42,846 nt of DNA from assembly GCA_030699445.1 (NCBI GenBank), contig JAUYMO010000020.1:1-42846 (forward strand), given 5' to 3'. Within the stretch, counting starts at the first letter, position 1, and the number at the start of each line of letters is the position of its first letter. The position numbers and the translations under genes were made by a program. This document shows, in pieces, positions 18,129 to 24,529 of this stretch. A model generated the notes under the pieces. That model saw only the letters and a program-made list of their open reading frames with translations. It was not told where the DNA came from and did not search any database. This DNA is from Candidatus Giovannonibacteria bacterium (GTDB lineage Bacteria; Patescibacteriota; Minisyncoccia; UBA11713; 2-01-FULL-45-33).

Positions 18129-19322
18129 ATGGCGGAAAAATTTGAGAGGACAAAACCCCACTTAAATGTGGGCACAATCGGCCACGTTGACCACGGCAAG
18201 ACCACTTTAACGGCGGCTATTTTACACGTGCTTAATTTGGCGGGCAAAAAGGTGCGCATTGAAAAAATTGAGGACATTGACAACGCTCCCGAAGAGAGGA
18301 AGCGCGGAATTACCATCGCCTTGCATCATTCCGAATACGAAACCGACAAGCGCCACTACGCGCACATTGATGCTCCCGGGCACGCCGACTACATTAAAAA
18401 TATGATAACCGGAGCCGCGCAGATGGACGGCGCGATTTTGGTGGTTTCGGCCGCGGACGGCCCGATGCCCCAGACCAGAGAGCACATTCTTTTGGCGCGC
18501 CAAGTAGGCGTTCCGGCGGTTATTGTTTTTCTGAATAAAGTTGACACGGTTGACGACAAAGAATTGGTTGATTTGGTTGAAACGGAAATCAGGGAGCTCT
18601 TAACCAAATATGAATACCCGGGCGACAAAACTCCGATTATCCGCGGTTCGGCTTTGAAGGCCTTGGCGGCGAAATCCGCCGATGACGAATGGGCCAAGCC
18701 GATTTTGGAACTTGCAAAACAATTAGATGAATATATTCCGGAACCTGTTCGCGACATTGACATGCCTTTTCTTATGCCGGCTGAAGATGTTTTTTCAATT
18801 GAAGGAAGAGGCACCGTGGTTACCGGAAGAATTGAGCGCGGAAAAGTTAAATTAAACGACGAAGTTGAAATCGTGGGATTGAAAGACACCCAAAAAACTG
18901 TGGTGACGGGCATTGAAATGTTCAATAAGCAATTGGACGAAGGCATGGCGGGAGACAACGCCGGGATTTTGCTCCGCGGAGTTAAAAAGGAAGACGTGGA
19001 AAGGGGCCAGGTAATCGCCAAGCCCGGGTCTATTACTCCGCACACCGATTTTGAATCGGAAGTTTATATTCTCACCAAAGAAGAAGGCGGACGGCACACG
19101 CCGTTTTTCACCGGCTATAAGCCGCAATTTTACATCAGGACAACCGATGTGACCGGCGATGTGACGTTGCCGACTGGGACTGAAATGGTGATGCCAGGAG
19201 ACACGATTAAATTCACTGTGAAGCTCATCGCGCCGGTTGCCATGGAAGAAAAATTGCGCTTCGCGATTCGCGAAGGAGGCAAAACTGTCGGTGCGGGAGT
19301 TGTCACCAAAATTGTTAAATAA
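18129..19322 (+). CDS. tuf: Elongation factor Tu
   Basis: [30 protein letters not shown]. Confidence 0.99.
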
Positions 19323-19338
19323 AGCTAAAAATTAAGCG

Positions 19339-19698
19339 ATGCCGAAGAGCCCATTAAAAACCAAAGAGAAAGAAAAAGAAAAGGAAGCGGAAGAAAAGCA
19401 AAGGCTTAGAATCCGCGTGCGAGCTTACGACCATAAAATTTTGGACTCCTCGGTAAAACAAATCGTGGACACGGCTTTGAGGTACGGCTCGGAAATACAG
19501 GGGCCGGTGCCTTTGCCCACGGAAATAAAAAAATACACCGTCAACCGCTCATCTTTCGTGCACAAAAACGCGCGGGAGCAGTTTGAAATGCGCGTGCACC
19601 GGCGCCTAATTGATATTTTAAACCCCACGGCGAAAGTTATTGAAGCCATGACCAATCTCAATCTTCCGGCAGGCGTGGATATTGAGATAAAAATGTAA
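19339..19698 (+). CDS. rpsJ: 30S ribosomal protein S10
   Basis: [31 protein letters not shown]. Confidence 0.99.
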
Positions 19699-19711
19699 TA
19701 ATATTAAATTG

Positions 19712-19894
19712 ATGGCACAAGAAATTACAATTGACGATTTGGCCGGAATGGTAAAACGCAGGTTTGATAAGGTTGACGAAACCTTAGACAGAATCGAAAA
19801 CTTTATTTTAAAGAAACACGAAAGAGAAATCGGAGATTTGAAATTGCGCATGCAAAACCTTGAAGATATGCTGGCAATGCCAACGAAGAAATAA
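19712..19894 (+). CDS. Small coiled-coil hypothetical protein
   Basis: ITIDDLAGMVKRRFDKVDETLDRIE heptad pattern. Confidence 0.7.
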   Translation: MAQEITIDDLAGMVKRRFDKVDETLDRIENFILKKHEREIGDLKLRMQNLEDMLAMPTKK

Positions 19895-19926
19895 AAAAAG
19901 TTGTGGGTGCATATTACCACACGCTA

Positions 19927-19955
19927 TTGACATAGGTCTATCTTAGGTCTATGCT
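19927..19955 (+). promoter_or_regulatory. Sigma70 promoter TTGACA-17-TATGCT with a taggtctat direct repeat
   Basis: Repeat units at 19933-19941 and 19944-19952. Confidence 0.7.
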
Positions 19956-19982
19956 CAAACACAGAAGAAGAAAGGAGCTTTT

Positions 19983-20360
19983 ATGACTAAGAGAGATTGG
20001 GAGTTTTTGGAAAAAATGCCTGGTCGCCTTGACTCTGTTATTAAAAGTCTCGAACTAGTTTCTTTCCTAAAAGACAGAGAGAATCAGATTGGGGGCGAAG
20101 AAATGCTTTGCCGGGCTCGTTTCGAGTTTGGCACCAATTACGGTCAAGAAGACGCCGATTGGTTTATTGAGCATCAAGAAAAGATTCCCAAAGAATTCCG
20201 TCCATTCTTTCTCGTTTTTGCTGGTTCTGACTGTATGACCTCATGGGGTTGGCGTCATGTTGCGTGTCTAAGCTTTGAAAGTGGGCTGTGGGTTCTCGGC
20301 TTAAAGGGGCTCAACGAGTATTTCTATTCCCCTTGCCGACTGGTTCGTAATCGTAGATAG
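19983..20360 (+). CDS. Hypothetical protein with a DGR variable-region-like C-terminus
   Basis: G.R.V..L....G.W.L....L...F....RL.R.R C-terminus, NNY-rich codons, downstream GC hairpin; AAGGAG SD. Confidence 0.6.
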   Translation: MTKRDWEFLEKMPGRLDSVIKSLELVSFLKDRENQIGGEEMLCRARFEFGTNYGQEDADWFIEHQEKIPKEFRPFFLVFAGSDCMTSWGWRHVACLSFESGLWVLGLKGLNEYFYSPCRLVRNRR

Positions 20361-20394
20361 TTCTTTGAAGCTTGGGATCTTGTTTTTTTAACTT

Positions 20395-20428
20395 TCAGCT
20401 CTGCGCGCACGCAGAGCTGATTTTTTTT
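20395..20428 (+). terminator. GC hairpin plus U-tract (terminator and/or DGR target stem-loop)
   Basis: tcagctctgcg-cgca-cgcagagctga-tttttttt. Confidence 0.8.
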
Positions 20429-20469
20429 ATGCTATTGAAATTTAAATCTTTGTTTGCTACACTAAGCCA

Positions 20470-21072
20470 ATGAAATTCATACTTGCTAAAAAAATAGAAA
20501 TGTCGCAGATTTTTGACGACAAAGGTAGGGTGCATCCGGTAACCTGGCTTTTGGCCGGGCCTATTTTTGTGACCCAGAAAAAATCGGCGGAAAAAGACGG
20601 ATATGTTTCCGTGCAAGTCGGCTTTGGGACGAAAAAAGAAAAAAATATAAAAAAACCGCAGAAAAAATTGGGAAATTTTGAGGGATTTAAAGAATTCAGA
20701 CCTCTAACTTCCGACGCCTCGCTTCCGGAAGTGGGGGACAAAATTGATGTTTCGGTTTTTAAAGAAGGAGACGCTGTTAATGTTTCAGGAACTTCCAAAG
20801 GCAAGGGCTTTCAGGGCGTTGTGAAAAGGCACGGCTTCGCCGGCGGCTCGCGGACTCACGGCCAGAAGCATTCGGAAAGAGAGCCGGGGTCAATCGGAGC
20901 AACTTGGCCGCAAAGAGTTTTGAAAGGCAAGCGCATGCCCGGGCGGATGGGCAGCGAGCGCGTCACGGTGCGGAATCTTAAAGTAATCAAAATAATTCCG
21001 GAAAAAAATCTTCTGGCCATTTTAGGAGCTGTTCCTGGTCATCGTGGCAGTCTCGTGGAGGTTAGGGGGTGA
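20470..21072 (+). CDS. rplC: 50S ribosomal protein L3
   Basis: SKGKGFQGVVKRH, HGQKHSEREPGSIG, GKRMPGRMG. Confidence 0.99.
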   Translation: MKFILAKKIEMSQIFDDKGRVHPVTWLLAGPIFVTQKKSAEKDGYVSVQVGFGTKKEKNIKKPQKKLGNFEGFKEFRPLTSDASLPEVGDKIDVSVFKEGDAVNVSGTSKGKGFQGVVKRHGFAGGSRTHGQKHSEREPGSIGATWPQRVLKGKRMPGRMGSERVTVRNLKVIKIIPEKNLLAILGAVPGHRGSLVEVRG

Positions 21073-21073
21073 A

Positions 21074-21156
21074 TTTATAGTTATCTCCGGCGCCCTGCCT
21101 GCCGGCAGGCAGGCATCCCCGGCAACCGCGGAAGCTTGGTGGAAATCAGAGGATAA
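21074..21156 (+). pseudogene. Relic second rplC 3' end, frameshifted by a 20-bp palindrome
   Basis: FIVISGA[cctgcctgccggcaggcagg]IPGNRGSLVEIRG* versus the active LLAILGAVPGHRGSLVEVRG*. Confidence 0.85.
21094..21113. repeat. 20-bp perfect palindrome of the CCTGCC/GGCAGG family
   Basis: cctgcctgcc|ggcaggcagg. Confidence 0.95.
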
Positions 21157-21174
21157 AAGGGTTATAATTAGCAT

Positions 21175-21435
21175 ATGTCAAAAACACAAGAAGAAAACAT
21201 CATAAAAATGCCCGATTTAAGCTCAATTCTTAAGCCATATGAAAATAAATGGGTGGCGCTTTCTCCTGATAGAAAAAAAGTTGTGGCCAGTGGCGAAACC
21301 CTTAAAGAGGCCGCTTCTAAAATAGACAGCAAGTTTAAAAATCAAGTTGCTTTTTCGAAAGTGCTGTCGCTCGGCATAAATTTAGCGCCTTCTATAAGAA
21401 ATAATATATATGAGGCCTACAACAGAAGAACTTAA
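21175..21435 (+). CDS. DUF5678-like small protein
   Basis: YENKWVAL...KVVASGETLKEA pattern. Confidence 0.65.
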   Translation: MSKTQEENIIKMPDLSSILKPYENKWVALSPDRKKVVASGETLKEAASKIDSKFKNQVAFSKVLSLGINLAPSIRNNIYEAYNRRT

Positions 21436-21736
21436 TAAGAAAATTTGGTACCGGATATTTAAAGTTGTCGCTGTTTTGGTTTTTATTGGAGCATTTATCG
21501 CGCCATGGATAGTACACGAACCCAATATTTTGCTATTGATCGATAGTGCTGTCAACGCACTTATATGGTTGATATTACTTTTTATTATCCGAGCGGTGAT
21601 TTTGTATACAATATATGGAAAAAGAGAGACAACACCGGAAGAAAGAAAAAGAATATGGGAATGGATAATTTGGGGGACTGCCAGTTTGATACTAATAGTC
21701 GGCTTTTTATCCGTCGTTATTTATTTTGCTTTCTAA
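21410..21736 (+). CDS. Hypothetical membrane protein (3 TM)
   Basis: Three hydrophobic segments. Confidence 0.65.
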   Translation: MRPTTEELNKKIWYRIFKVVAVLVFIGAFIAPWIVHEPNILLLIDSAVNALIWLILLFIIRAVILYTIYGKRETTPEERKRIWEWIIWGTASLILIVGFLSVVIYFAF

Positions 21737-21833
21737 GCGATATTCACACAGTAGTTGAGGTGTATGCTATTATAAGAGTATAGTAAAATTGGTTTATATC
21801 TACGACAAACGACGTGTCTTTTTTGGTTTTGTC

Positions 21834-21862
21834 TTGACAAATGTTTAATAACGCTTTATATT
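21834..21862 (+). promoter_or_regulatory. Promoter TTGACA-17-TATATT
   Basis: Upstream of the Panacea gene. Confidence 0.7.
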
Positions 21863-21888
21863 AAGAACATAAGAAAACATACAAACAA

Positions 21889-22425
21889 ATGAATATACCA
21901 CTCCCAAAATTGAAGGCCATCATACTCTATTTTTGCACTTACACCGACAGTAAGTTTCTTGGGAAAGTAAAGCTAATGAAGCTATTTTACTTTCTAGATT
22001 TTATGCATATAAAAAAATATGGCGCGCCAGTTACTTATGATCATTATGTGAATCTAGAACATGGGCCTATACCTTCCTCTATAAAAAACTTAATTGATAA
22101 TGCCTCCGATGACGTAGATAATTCTGTGTTATCTGACATAGTTTCATTTGAGACGCCGGAAGGAACTGGTATGTACCGCGTTATTCCCTCTAGAAAGTTT
22201 ACAGAGAAAGACGAAAAATATTTTTCACGCACAGAATTAGACATTCTAAACGCCGTTTGTAGGAGATTTGGTGATAAAAACACCAAATATATAGAAGACA
22301 TATCTCATGCAGAGGCACCATGGAAAGAAACAAAATTTTTGGAGGAAATTCCATACACACTTGCTACAAAGGACACTGATTGCTTGGTAAGCGAGGAAGA
22401 AATAAAATTATTACTTAGCCTTTAA
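21889..22425 (+). CDS. Panacea (DUF4065/GepA/SocA-like) antitoxin
   Basis: GKVKLMKLFYFLDF, HGPIP, ISHAEAPW. Confidence 0.9.
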   Translation: MNIPLPKLKAIILYFCTYTDSKFLGKVKLMKLFYFLDFMHIKKYGAPVTYDHYVNLEHGPIPSSIKNLIDNASDDVDNSVLSDIVSFETPEGTGMYRVIPSRKFTEKDEKYFSRTELDILNAVCRRFGDKNTKYIEDISHAEAPWKETKFLEEIPYTLATKDTDCLVSEEEIKLLLSL

Positions 22426-22433
22426 AAAACGTT

Positions 22434-22826
22434 ATGGCCGAAACCATTAAATTCGGTGACGTATTTAAATACAAAGAAAAAGAATACGTATACCTAGTAA
22501 AAACAGACGAAATACTTTACGTTGCCGCAATACTGAATAAAGAAGACACATCTAGGGTTAACACGCGATATGAGAATTTGGAGCGTAACGGCAAAATTGA
22601 TCAATATAAAGACCACCCACTTTATTGTTTTGTAATGTTAACGACAGAGGAATTTAAAGATAGAATGGCTAACTTTTATCGGCCCGGACATGACGAGAGC
22701 AACCTAAATTTTGGTGGCATATTATGTTCCTTAAATGTTAGAGATTTAAAGGATATAAAATCCGAAATATTAAAAGGGCCTGTACCCAAAGAGCTTCAGG
22801 AATTAGTAAAAAATATCAATATATAA
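22434..22826 (+). CDS. Hypothetical protein, candidate Panacea-cognate toxin
   Basis: 8 nt downstream of the Panacea gene; same low-GC composition; followed by a terminator. Confidence 0.6.
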   Translation: MAETIKFGDVFKYKEKEYVYLVKTDEILYVAAILNKEDTSRVNTRYENLERNGKIDQYKDHPLYCFVMLTTEEFKDRMANFYRPGHDESNLNFGGILCSLNVRDLKDIKSEILKGPVPKELQELVKNINI

Positions 22827-22835
22827 GCTATGTCC

Positions 22836-22858
22836 AGCCCCCTTGCGGGGGGTTTTTG
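22836..22858 (+). terminator. Terminator-like hairpin, repeated at 23235-23258
   Basis: agcccccttgcggggggtttttg versus agccacccttgcggggggtttttg. Confidence 0.75.
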
Positions 22859-22878
22859 ATGATGATATTATTAAATTG

Positions 22879-23061
22879 ATGGCAAAAAAGAAAATTAAAA
22901 AAGACATACTTACTTTTAACGCTGTTTTTTCCGAAGAAGACGCTGGCGGATATAGTGTGAGCGTACCGGCTTTGCCGGGATGTTTTTCGCAGGGGGATGA
23001 TTTTGAGGAGGCGGCGAAGAATATCGCAGAAGCAATTGAACTTTATAAGGTAGCCACATGA
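22879..23061 (+). CDS. hicB: HicB-family antitoxin (C-terminally shortened)
   Basis: [34 protein letters not shown]. Confidence 0.9.
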
Positions 23062-23198
23062 AATTTATTCGTATGGGTTCTGAGGGCGCAAAAGAATCCA
23101 TTGTTGTTCCAAATCACAAAGTTTTAAAGAAAGGAATGTTGCATGATATTTTAAAAAAGCTCGGACTTAATATTGAAAAATTTAAAGAGCTTGGTTGA
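23049..23198 (+). pseudogene. hicA: HicA toxin remnant lacking its N-terminus
   Basis: GSHMKFIR...[23 protein letters not shown]; no start codon upstream of GSH. Confidence 0.8.
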
Positions 23199-23424
23199 GG
23201 CGAGAGGATAAATAGCTATATTTTGAAGCTCAAAAGCCACCCTTGCGGGGGGTTTTTGGTTGTGCTAATATCTAAATCACTTGTGGGAAGAGAACCAAAA
23301 TACGGTTTAGGAGGATAAAAAGGCGCAAAATCCCGGGTTTTTAACCGAGGAGGTTCTGCCTCCTTGTTTTTCGTTGCTTTAGCAACGATCCCGCCATCGG
23401 CGGGATGAAAGCTAAAGCTTTCAT

Positions 23425-24075
23425 ATGAAAATAACAACTTATAACACAAAAGGAGAAAAGGCGGGAACTGCGGAATTGCCGGAGGGGATTTTTGGGGTGG
23501 CTTGGAAACCGGCGTTGGTAAAACAGGTTTTTGACGGGGAAATGGCCAACAAGCGCCGCCCCTGGGCGCATACCAAAACCAGAGGCGAGGTAAGGGGAGG
23601 CGGCAGAAAGCCGTGGCGGCAAAAAGGGACGGGACGAGCGCGCCATGGGTCAACACGCTCTCCTTTGTGGGTTGGCGGTGGAGTCGCCCATGGGCCGAGA
23701 AACGAAAGGGATTACAGCGTAAAAATAAATAAAAAAATGAGGCGGGGAGCGCTGATTTCTTTGCTTTCCAGAAAATTAAAAGAAAAAGAAATTATTTTGA
23801 TTGATAATTTTGAAATGGCTAAACCCAAAACAAAAGAAGCTTTTAATATTTTTAAAAATTTAAGGACAGCAGGAGATATTTATAATTTGGGAGTAAAAGG
23901 CGGGAAAGCGCTTTTGGCTTTAGTGAAAGGCGACGCCAAAAAAGCGGTCCATAATCTGCCTTTCGTGAATTTTATAGAGCCGAGAAATTTGAATGTTTCG
24001 GCGCTTTTAAAAAATAAATATTTAATTTTGGATAAGGCCAGCATTAAAGAATTAGAAAAAACTTATGCCGTTTAA
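23425..24075 (+). CDS. rplD: 50S ribosomal protein L4
   Basis: TKTRGEVRGGGRKPWRQKGTGRARHGS. Confidence 0.99.
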   Translation: MKITTYNTKGEKAGTAELPEGIFGVAWKPALVKQVFDGEMANKRRPWAHTKTRGEVRGGGRKPWRQKGTGRARHGSTRSPLWVGGGVAHGPRNERDYSVKINKKMRRGALISLLSRKLKEKEIILIDNFEMAKPKTKEAFNIFKNLRTAGDIYNLGVKGGKALLALVKGDAKKAVHNLPFVNFIEPRNLNVSALLKNKYLILDKASIKELEKTYAV

Positions 24076-24529
24076 TTTATCGCAAATATTCGGAGGATGG
24101 AGGAGGAAAGAAAGCAAAGGGCGCAGCAAGGCCCGAGGCACAGCGGATGAAATTTCTAGGCGTGGGCGCGCGCCCGAAGCCGCGAAAGCGGCTGAGGGCA
24201 GGGTTAAGGAAATTTCAGATGCTACGCCTCGGGTCGCTTCCGTCAAAAATAAAAGCGAATTGGCGTGGAAATTAATTATCGCGCCGCATATTTCCGAAAA
24301 ATCAACTATGCTCGGCGATGGCAGGTATGTTTTTAAAGTCTCCGGCTCCGCCAACAAGCCTTCCCTTAGGCAGGCCATAGAAGGCAGGTATGGCGTCGCG
24401 GTTCAGTCTATCAACATTCTCGCGGCAAGAAATAAAAAACGGAGACGAGGCGTGATTTTGGGAATTAAGCCGGGATTTAAAAAAGCAATTGTGGCGTTAA
24501 AAGCAGGGCAAACTATTTCTGAATTTTAA
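24065..24529 (+). CDS. rplW: 50S ribosomal protein L23 with N-terminal extension
   Basis: PHISEKS, YVFKV...ANK, KKAIVAL; position between rplD and rplB. Confidence 0.95.
   Translation: MPFNLSQIFGGWRRKESKGRSKARGTADEISRRGRAPEAAKAAEGRVKEISDATPRVASVKNKSELAWKLIIAPHISEKSTMLGDGRYVFKVSGSANKPSLRQAIEGRYGVAVQSINILAARNKKRRRGVILGIKPGFKKAIVALKAGQTISEF

Follow-up and report, generated by a model that had tools for sequence, protein, structure and literature searches.

We analysed the 3′ end of rplC, the gene for ribosomal protein L3, together with the DNA that follows it, in a window of 42,846 nucleotides (nt) that is part of contig JAUYMO010000020.1 (C52) of a Candidatus Giovannonibacteria bacterium. The host is a tiny groundwater bacterium with a genome (hereafter G000) of 658 kb in 58 contigs. 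Around the site, tuf (18129-19322) is followed by rpsJ (19339-19698), an insert of 771 nt, rplC (20470-21072), 2.35 kb of extra DNA and then rplD (23425-24075), rplW, rplB, rpsS and rplV. All parts of this site described below lie on the forward strand, save for a palindrome, to which no strand is assigned. The rplC gene is full length (200 amino acids (aa), Pfam Ribosomal_L3) and ends in LLAILGAVPGHRGSLVEVRG followed by TGA, and rplD, encoding ribosomal protein L4, matches Pfam Ribosomal_L4 at 206 bits. Three versions of the rplC end occur in series here, namely the active end (21019-21072), a first relic shortly behind its stop codon (21083-21156) and a second, much shorter relic at the right edge of the extra DNA (23191-23211). 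A first-pass annotation of this DNA had reported rplC ends in these three places, and all of them are present in the sequence. For comparison we used a family sample of 20 genomes, of which 18 have an rplC end usable for measuring the gap to rplD.

The 5′ part of the gene, about 550 nt, is vertical and about 90% identical at the nucleotide level to that of two congeners, G001 and G002. Identity to these congeners runs at about 27 of every 30 nt along the gene and drops to 18/30 (60%) in the last ~50 nt. The drop is also seen in the third codon positions, at which the gene agrees with that of G002 in 68/93 cases upstream versus 6/17 in the last 17 codons (p=0.004). The active end, ILGAVPGHRGSLVEVRG followed by TGA, is further set apart by its codon usage, with 9/17 T-ending codons compared with a share of 22% in eight housekeeping genes (p=0.006 by Fisher's test), and it is identical to the first relic at only 30 of 51 nt. 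Comparison with ~110 ends turned up no close nucleotide relative (best match 36/48); likewise, a search for its donor with a codon-family pattern gave 0 matches in the genome collection, and a looser pattern gave 0 in the viral collection. The stop codon is weak evidence of foreignness, since TGA closes 104 of the 437 long open frames genome-wide, while the seven other translation genes checked in the window all end in TAA.

The active stop codon is followed by a linker of 10 nt (21073-21082), the sole DNA at the place expected for the cargo of the latest event, and then by relic 1 (21083-21156), which is interrupted by a 20-bp palindrome at 21094-21113. With the palindrome taken out, the segment reads ISGAIPGNRGSLVEIRG + TAA, in which the end proper is ISGA / IPGNRGSLVEIRG + TAA. 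A nucleotide profile of the last 66 nt of rplC from 14 family members, searched with nhmmer in the window and in the genome, matched relic 1 in the window at E=2.2e-12 (42.5 bits), a closeness to rplC ends well above chance; nhmmer starts the match at profile position 5, and by eye we set the boundary at about 10-13. Relic 1 is identical to the G001 end at 44/51 nt and to that of a further family member, G010, at 45/51. Its earlier description as an rplC end with host-like codons, broken by the palindrome, holds. None of its 17 codons is T-ending and 11 are C-ending; the codon contrast between the two ends that had been pointed out before (9/17 versus 0/17 T-ending) is thus real, although the TGA that was counted as part of it adds little. 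Because of the identity drop, the third positions, the codon usage and the match of relic 1 to the congeners, we conclude from these sequence comparisons that the active end is one acquired from elsewhere and that relic 1 is the genus's own, vertically inherited end.

The proximity of the two copies, only 10 nt apart, in a metagenome-assembled genome of 58 contigs might also be put down to a local tandem duplication without foreign DNA, the copies having later diverged or undergone gene conversion, or to an assembly chimera of two strains. A duplication is hard to reconcile with the 21 differences in 51 nt between the active end and relic 1, when the rest of rplC differs by ~10% from the congeners; divergence in place under one and the same mutation regime cannot yield that. 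As for a chimera, another sample of this study yielded a 175-nt contig that is identical to 20943-21117 at every position and joins the active end to relic 1 and its palindrome, and the interval 21000-21200, singled out in the first-pass annotation, is thereby bridged up to 21117. Among the pieces listed none spans 21117-23500 (stretches without cover carry no information), and every sampled word of the window is present in sequencing run X1. The same architecture also recurs in five other assemblies (see below), and we regard both of these explanations as close to refuted.

The palindrome that frameshifts relic 1, CCTGCCTGCCGGCAGGCAGG, is perfect and GC-rich; compared with the GGCGCC|ATCCCC of the congeners it is an exact insertion of 20 nt. 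As a member of a dispersed repeat family it has 11 loci in G000 (besides that in relic 1, C13:12025, C28:3700, C28:6748, C45:13110 and six more), all with unrelated flanks, and is conserved letter for letter across genera, being present in 15 of the 19 other family genomes (1-13 copies each) and in five of 21 genomes from other families; a control with the reversed pattern gave 0. Not all of these loci lie between genes: four of the 11 are within long open frames (380-927 codons), always in the same reading frame, which gives xLPAGRQx. By eye, the translations of these four frames look like the housekeeping proteins AlaRS, GyrA, RNR and a P-type ATPase. In a frame of 917 codons, comparison with four orthologues shows the palindrome as a clean 21-nt, 7-residue insert present in G000 only. 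A candidate mobiliser of the palindrome is a 223-aa open reading frame (ORF) on contig C42 (L127:763-1434), which has weak matches to the REP-associated tyrosine transposase (RAYT) model NF047646 (37.5 bits, cut-off 80) and to Y1_Tnp (20.5 bits, cut-off 23). This ORF adjoins the genome's only tyrosine recombinase, an Xer-like one (L127:1435-2307). Judged from flanks inspected by eye at C53:11007, C25:14533 and C34:11748, one copy lies inside a tRNA D-arm-like sequence and two abut TTATCCACA, which resembles a DnaA box. REP elements with their RAYT transposases and the Rickettsia palindromic elements are the closest known systems: they share with the present family the short GC-rich sequence, the many copies with unrelated flanks and some in-frame copies, and the genome has the weakly RAYT-like gene just described; the present family differs in being only 20-21 nt long, in its letter-for-letter conservation across genera and in having 4/11 loci inside long frames.

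The first-pass annotation had raised as a possibility an order of events in which the palindrome came first, frameshifting the then-active rplC end, and the foreign end was fixed afterwards as a rescue of L3. That the palindrome sits within relic 1, and that it can enter genes, as in the four long frames and in the verified 7-residue insert, speaks for this order. However, the one coding copy checked against orthologues is 21 nt long and in frame, and the other three lie in the same frame, whereas the copy in relic 1 has 20 nt and breaks the frame; an insertion into an already dead relic 1 fits this better. A frameshift in the active gene would also have altered the last 14 residues of an essential protein, a state that would have to persist until a rare rescue, and the long relics of three relatives (G010, G018 and G002; see below) have no palindrome, so that replacement of the end needs none. 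The rescue order is accordingly the less parsimonious one and in our judgement improbable.

Relic 2 (23191-23211) is a 21-nt copy of the extreme rplC end, TTGGTTGAGGCGAGAGGATAA, at the right edge of the cargo. The wider segment 23188-23211 is identical to relic 1 at 20 of 25 positions (repeat family D12), and the AGCTT with which it starts is the native end of a hicA gene, homologues of which end in ...EKFK(K/E)L; since hicA owns these first bases, relic 2 proper has 21 nt. Its profile score alone is marginal, with E=0.053 in the window; against the full genome E is 0.81, and two unrelated loci score higher. It is nevertheless credible because of its position just before the resumed ancestral spacer and because its left boundary, TTGGTGGA, is that of the short relics in two other family genomes, G007 and G019. 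Its TAA lies 28 nt upstream of the hairpin (23239-23253) of the ancestral rplC-rplD spacer (23236-23424); from this hairpin on, through the conserved leader behind it, the spacer is collinear with that of the congeners G001 and G002 and with the spacer of congeners that have no insert. What had been read as a third successive version of the rplC tail thus survives as rplC-end-like sequence at 23188-23211, but as a 21-nt repeat at the cargo edge and not as a third full version of the end. An internal second copy of the spacer hairpin and its AT-rich stretch is found at 22826-22880 (repeat D5, also seen by alignment), with a terminator-like part at 22838-22852 picked up by a terminator scan. This copy and the one at 23209-23271 (27/32 identical) bracket a hicBA remnant; the remnant may therefore have entered the spacer in an insertion of its own, or it may have brought a copy of the hairpin along.

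Enlarged junctions of this kind recur in the family. The gap between rplC and rplD is 335-5672 nt in 12 of the 18 family genomes and 6-171 nt in the other six, as compared with 1-116 nt in 14 genomes from other families of the class; among 76 metagenome loci, whose L3 is at most 61% identical, it exceeds 500 nt in only five. A test for repeats of a genome's own rplC end at 44 junctions returned five cases with z of at least 9.6, all within the family, and z of at most 2.5 for the rest. These are G010 (54/57 identical, z 44), G018 (47/57, z 28), G002 (44/50, z 23), G007 (22/22, z 15) and G019 (19/21, z 10). The test misses old or foreign pairs, and the window's own pair escapes it since the active end is so diverged. 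None of the metagenome loci tested has a repeat of its own rplC end, and no such case was found outside the family. The survey of junctions for duplicated ends thus yields five other family genomes, and with the window six, in which cargo is flanked by direct repeats of the rplC end. The repeats fall into two length classes of about 21 and 50-57 nt with sharp boundaries, the long relics beginning at profile positions 10-13 (G010, G018, G002) and the short ones at the boundary already noted for relic 2 (G007, G019 and the window). In G010 and G018 the relic is most similar to the active ends of the genome's own genus (48/51 and 43/51, respectively) and not to the other relic (36/51), which speaks either for separate events that share one boundary or for gene conversion. 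We take the 3′ end of rplC to be a recurrent attachment point in this family.

The cargo at these junctions is, by its predicted gene content, accessory and mobile, and most of it consists of toxin-antitoxin remnants. In G010 (L035), about 5.5 kb lies between rplC and the 57-nt relic, inside the S10 operon, and encodes a DUF5678 protein, a retropepsin-like protease, a thioredoxin/glutaredoxin, a DsbD_TM protein, a weak MerT-like match, a MerA-like reductase and an ArsR regulator; judged by these domains it is a mercury-type island. G014 has a gene for an NYN-domain protein, and in G019 the frame of a starch-synthase-like gene extends into the relic. In G013 (L009) and on contig C65 of G019 (L010), a weak Phd/ParE-like pair stands directly 3′ of the rplC stop codon; this cassette is ~93% identical between the two genomes, which belong to two genera, whereas the adjoining rplC is ~75% identical. 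The step lies exactly at the stop codon and is therefore a sign of transfer into the same site, and no relic was detected beside the cassette in G013.

In the window itself the cargo (21175-23198) is of the toxin-antitoxin type. It is preceded by a promoter-like site, TGGAAA-17-TATAAT (21140-21168), which comes from a consensus scan only and overlaps the end of relic 1; the same junction is seen in G010. A distance of 6 nt separates the site from the start codon of the first cargo gene, a placement of the -10 element that suggests a leaderless transcript. This gene (21175-21435) encodes an 86-aa DUF5678 protein (Pfam PF18929, 29.3 bits), and a DUF5678 gene is likewise directly 3′ of rplC in G010, the two proteins being 79% identical. 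The first 97 nt (21175-21271) are identical at 94 positions between the two genomes, after which identity is ~70%, with neighbouring housekeeping genes at 75-82%; the step may reflect either a mosaic or a constrained 5′ segment. The second gene (21410-21736) encodes a small membrane protein of 108 aa with weak pilin-like matches (T4SS_pilin, 21.2 bits, cut-off 26.6; NF045849, 22.1 bits, cut-off 40), and the third (21889-22425) a 178-aa antitoxin-like protein with a SocA/Panacea domain (Pfam PF13274, 72.8 bits). The fourth (22434-22826) encodes a 130-aa protein without a family, for which there was no match in Pfam, NCBIfam or PHROG and only unnamed clusters in Atlas; its position suggests that it is the toxin partner of the Panacea protein. 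The last unit is a hicB-hicA remnant (22879-23198) fused by an internal deletion, recognised by partial Pfam matches and by homologues in another genome, G269. The deletion removed the C-terminus of HicB and the first 30 residues of HicA, including the GSH motif present in the G269 homologue, and left 60 and 46 aa, as against 84 and 75 aa in G269 (Pfam profile positions 5-44 of 123 for HicB and 27-58 of 58 for HicA); the module is probably dead.

The operon has a second insert just upstream, the 771 nt between rpsJ and rplC (19699-20469), which holds two ORFs of 61 and 125 aa without a family and a strong terminator-like hairpin at 20395-20420; in relatives, rpsJ and rplC either abut or are separated by no more than about 30 nt. 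This insert has no repeat of the rpsJ end or of the rplC start (scores of 7.5-8.0, shuffle mean 8.2). A 23-nt repeat (D13) found 3′ of rpsJ and 5′ of hicB was set aside as AT-rich start-of-gene context with many short class-wide matches, and an Rfam search of 19000-24500 gave no match near the gathering score.

As to how such junctions arise, the reading that we favour, holding it with about even confidence, is site-specific integration by elements that have since decayed; it is favoured because of the sharp boundary classes, the 21-nt repeat and a close precedent in streptococci. Incoming DNA, presumably as a circular intermediate, would carry its own last ~21 or ~55 nt of rplC and undergo a single crossover with the chromosomal copy (Campbell topology). 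This would leave rplC intact with a hybrid or element-derived end, place the cargo behind its stop codon and displace the old end beyond the cargo. The window would then record at least two events. The first, with a short repeat, would have put the toxin-antitoxin-type cargo between what are now relic 1 and relic 2. The second, later and with a long repeat, would have placed the foreign end before the then-active end, which became relic 1; its cargo would have been deleted except for 10 nt, or the element would have left by an imprecise route. The palindrome in relic 1 and the internal deletion in hicBA would belong to the later decay. The recombination itself was most likely carried out by site-specific integrases that the elements have since lost, or by such enzymes acting in trans. 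The first-pass annotation had likewise held that cargo enters by recombination into the rplC 3′ end and brings a replacement end: as a topology this is upheld by the foreign end, the vertical relic 1 and the recurrence.

The precedent is that of the streptococcal integrative mobilizable and conjugative elements, which target the 3′ ends of rpsI, rplL, rpmG and rpmE (PMC5357655). As described there, these elements resemble the present case in using the 3′ end of an essential ribosomal gene, which stays intact, with direct repeats of the target end flanking the cargo, and also in having long and short repeat classes at one target and tandem accretion with decayed elements (PMC5357655). They differ in encoding tyrosine (some of them serine) integrases and mobilisation genes (PMC5357655), whereas none was found here in 24 selected cargo ORFs. 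The present junctions are further distinguished by rplC as the target, a candidate-phyla-radiation genome of ~0.66 Mb, cargo of 0.5-5.7 kb and one event without cargo. Looked at as an integrative element, the locus has the flanking repeats and the intact gene with a supplied end, but no adjacent integrase; the pieces recovered from the sequencing data, all of them contigs, have no joint that would indicate an excised circle or an empty site. Looked at as a decayed, cis-mobilizable element in tandem accretion, it has att-like repeats in series (active end, relic 1, relic 2) with no recombinase gene between them.

Several observations weigh against integration by dedicated elements. As the first-pass annotation had noted, the cargo of the window has no integrase: none of its six ORFs has a recombinase domain, and with 18 selected cargo ORFs added from eight relatives there was still no integrase, resolvase/recombinase or transposase domain. 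The only tyrosine recombinase of G000 is Xer-like, matching the XerA model at 254 bits (cut-off 220), and lies on another contig; serine recombinases are absent from this genome. Tyrosine recombinases likewise number one each in G002, G010, G018 and G019, as against three in G007, and large serine recombinases occur in G002, G010 and G018, none of them adjoining rplC. No rplC-end-like sequence was found near the recombinase genes examined in five relatives (13 loci, L196-L208), and pattern scans of the genome and viral collections revealed no free element with an rplC end. A scan with the short core gave 44 genome loci, 16 of them linked to rplC and 28 in unrelated taxa, with about 69 expected by chance; none of the matches extended beyond the 21-mer, nor did the single viral match. 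Taken over the 20 family genomes, with 18 family junctions, 13 recombinase loci and the pattern scans, a related autonomous element with a cognate integrase was not found. Six of the 12 enlarged junctions have no detected repeat. The second event in the window, being without cargo, needs an extra deletion and is the weakest step of the account. The crossover also seems to have fallen at different points, the left edge in the case of G000 and the vicinity of the stop codon in that of G002 (judged from few informative sites). In G019, moreover, contig C41 (L149/L043) has at 953-1234 a truncated rplC copy of which only the last 282 nt are present; it shares 88% identity with the complete gene on contig C65 and has unrelated small ORFs before it and a glgA-like gene, the 21-nt relic and rplD after it. 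This copy is either a third, much longer relic class or the result of a mixed bin (the genome is 1.2 Mb, and the two contigs may not belong to one chromosome). The apparently varying crossover point and the 282-nt copy fit homology-driven recombination better than a fixed core site.

These points bear on a second explanation, in which the same topology arises without a dedicated element: DNA from related cells, carrying an rplC 3′ end and cassettes, would be joined by host recombination, be it a RecA single crossover of an excised circle, homology-facilitated illegitimate recombination or the single Xer-like recombinase, with the junction being simply a permissive break in the operon. The lack of an integrase in the cargo examined, with only the Xer-like tyrosine recombinase in G000, is what this explanation would predict, and so are the variable repeat lengths (21, 50-57 and 282 nt) and the apparently variable crossover position. 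It is also consistent with the family-specific spacer of 150 nt, which has a terminator-like hairpin and an AT-rich stretch read as promoter-like, so that inserts need not break co-transcription, and with the cassettes without repeats that also stand directly 3′ of the stop codon, as in G013. On the other hand, 21 nt is very short for RecA-dependent recombination, and illegitimate joins would not be expected to share one boundary across three genomes of the short class and four of the long class whose cargo is unrelated. A single founding event inherited by all is made unlikely by the relics of G010 and G018, which resemble the ends of their own genera. We consider this explanation possible but not probable.

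Less probable still are integrase-free cassettes that would be defined by a short copy of the rplC end, excise as a circle through recombination between the repeats and re-insert into the conserved rplC end of a new host by means of the single Xer-like recombinase or, after DNA uptake, of RecA; this we think unlikely. The rplC end was also considered as an Xer-type site and rejected, as the alignment of the rplC end region with the Xer locus was at chance level and no dif-like site was recognised.

Returning to site-specific integration, other known systems share parts of this architecture. In Escherichia coli, e14 and phage 21 integrate into icd, bringing a substitute 3′ end while the displaced end stays as a pseudo-copy, with differences that are mostly synonymous; unlike the present locus, each is a single prophage with its own integrase and there are no serial relics. 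Islands at the 3′ ends of tRNA and tmRNA genes are alike in that the end of an essential gene is duplicated as attL and attR and successive islands form arrays, and unlike in that the target is an RNA gene and the integrase is normally adjacent; replacement at rplC, moreover, must keep the frame and the protein sequence. Decayed elements of the CIME type, Xer-dependent pdif modules and IMEX all have cargo, often toxin-antitoxin genes, between recombination sites without a recombinase of their own. The present junctions resemble them in their bounded cargo lacking a recombinase and differ in that no cognate integrase was found in the genome and no dif-like site was recognised there. Integration at a gene's 3′ end with replacement of that end and tandem accretion are thus known in kind; new are the lineage, rplC as the target, the lack of a recognisable integrase and an orphan foreign end without cargo. 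Among the titles and abstract openings searched, no paper describing insertions at rplC, or a hot spot of this sort in these bacteria, was found.

Very little is known about gene gain and loss in bacteria of the candidate phyla radiation, with their genomes of ~0.6 Mb and few recognisable mobile-element genes. The rplC-rplD junction offers a natural record of repeated gene gain in the most conserved operon of the genome, the arrivals including toxin-antitoxin modules and a mercury-type island, and shows that the end of an essential gene can be replaced by a foreign one. As rplC is a standard marker for phylogeny and binning, it also matters that in this genome the final ~50 nt do not share the history of the remainder of the gene. 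If no dedicated integrase is needed, the junctions would represent a new way of cassette movement; and if the cassettes are integrase-free units of their own, ultra-small genomes would have, in the end of an essential ribosomal gene, a universal docking site for cassettes of the toxin-antitoxin and resistance kinds.

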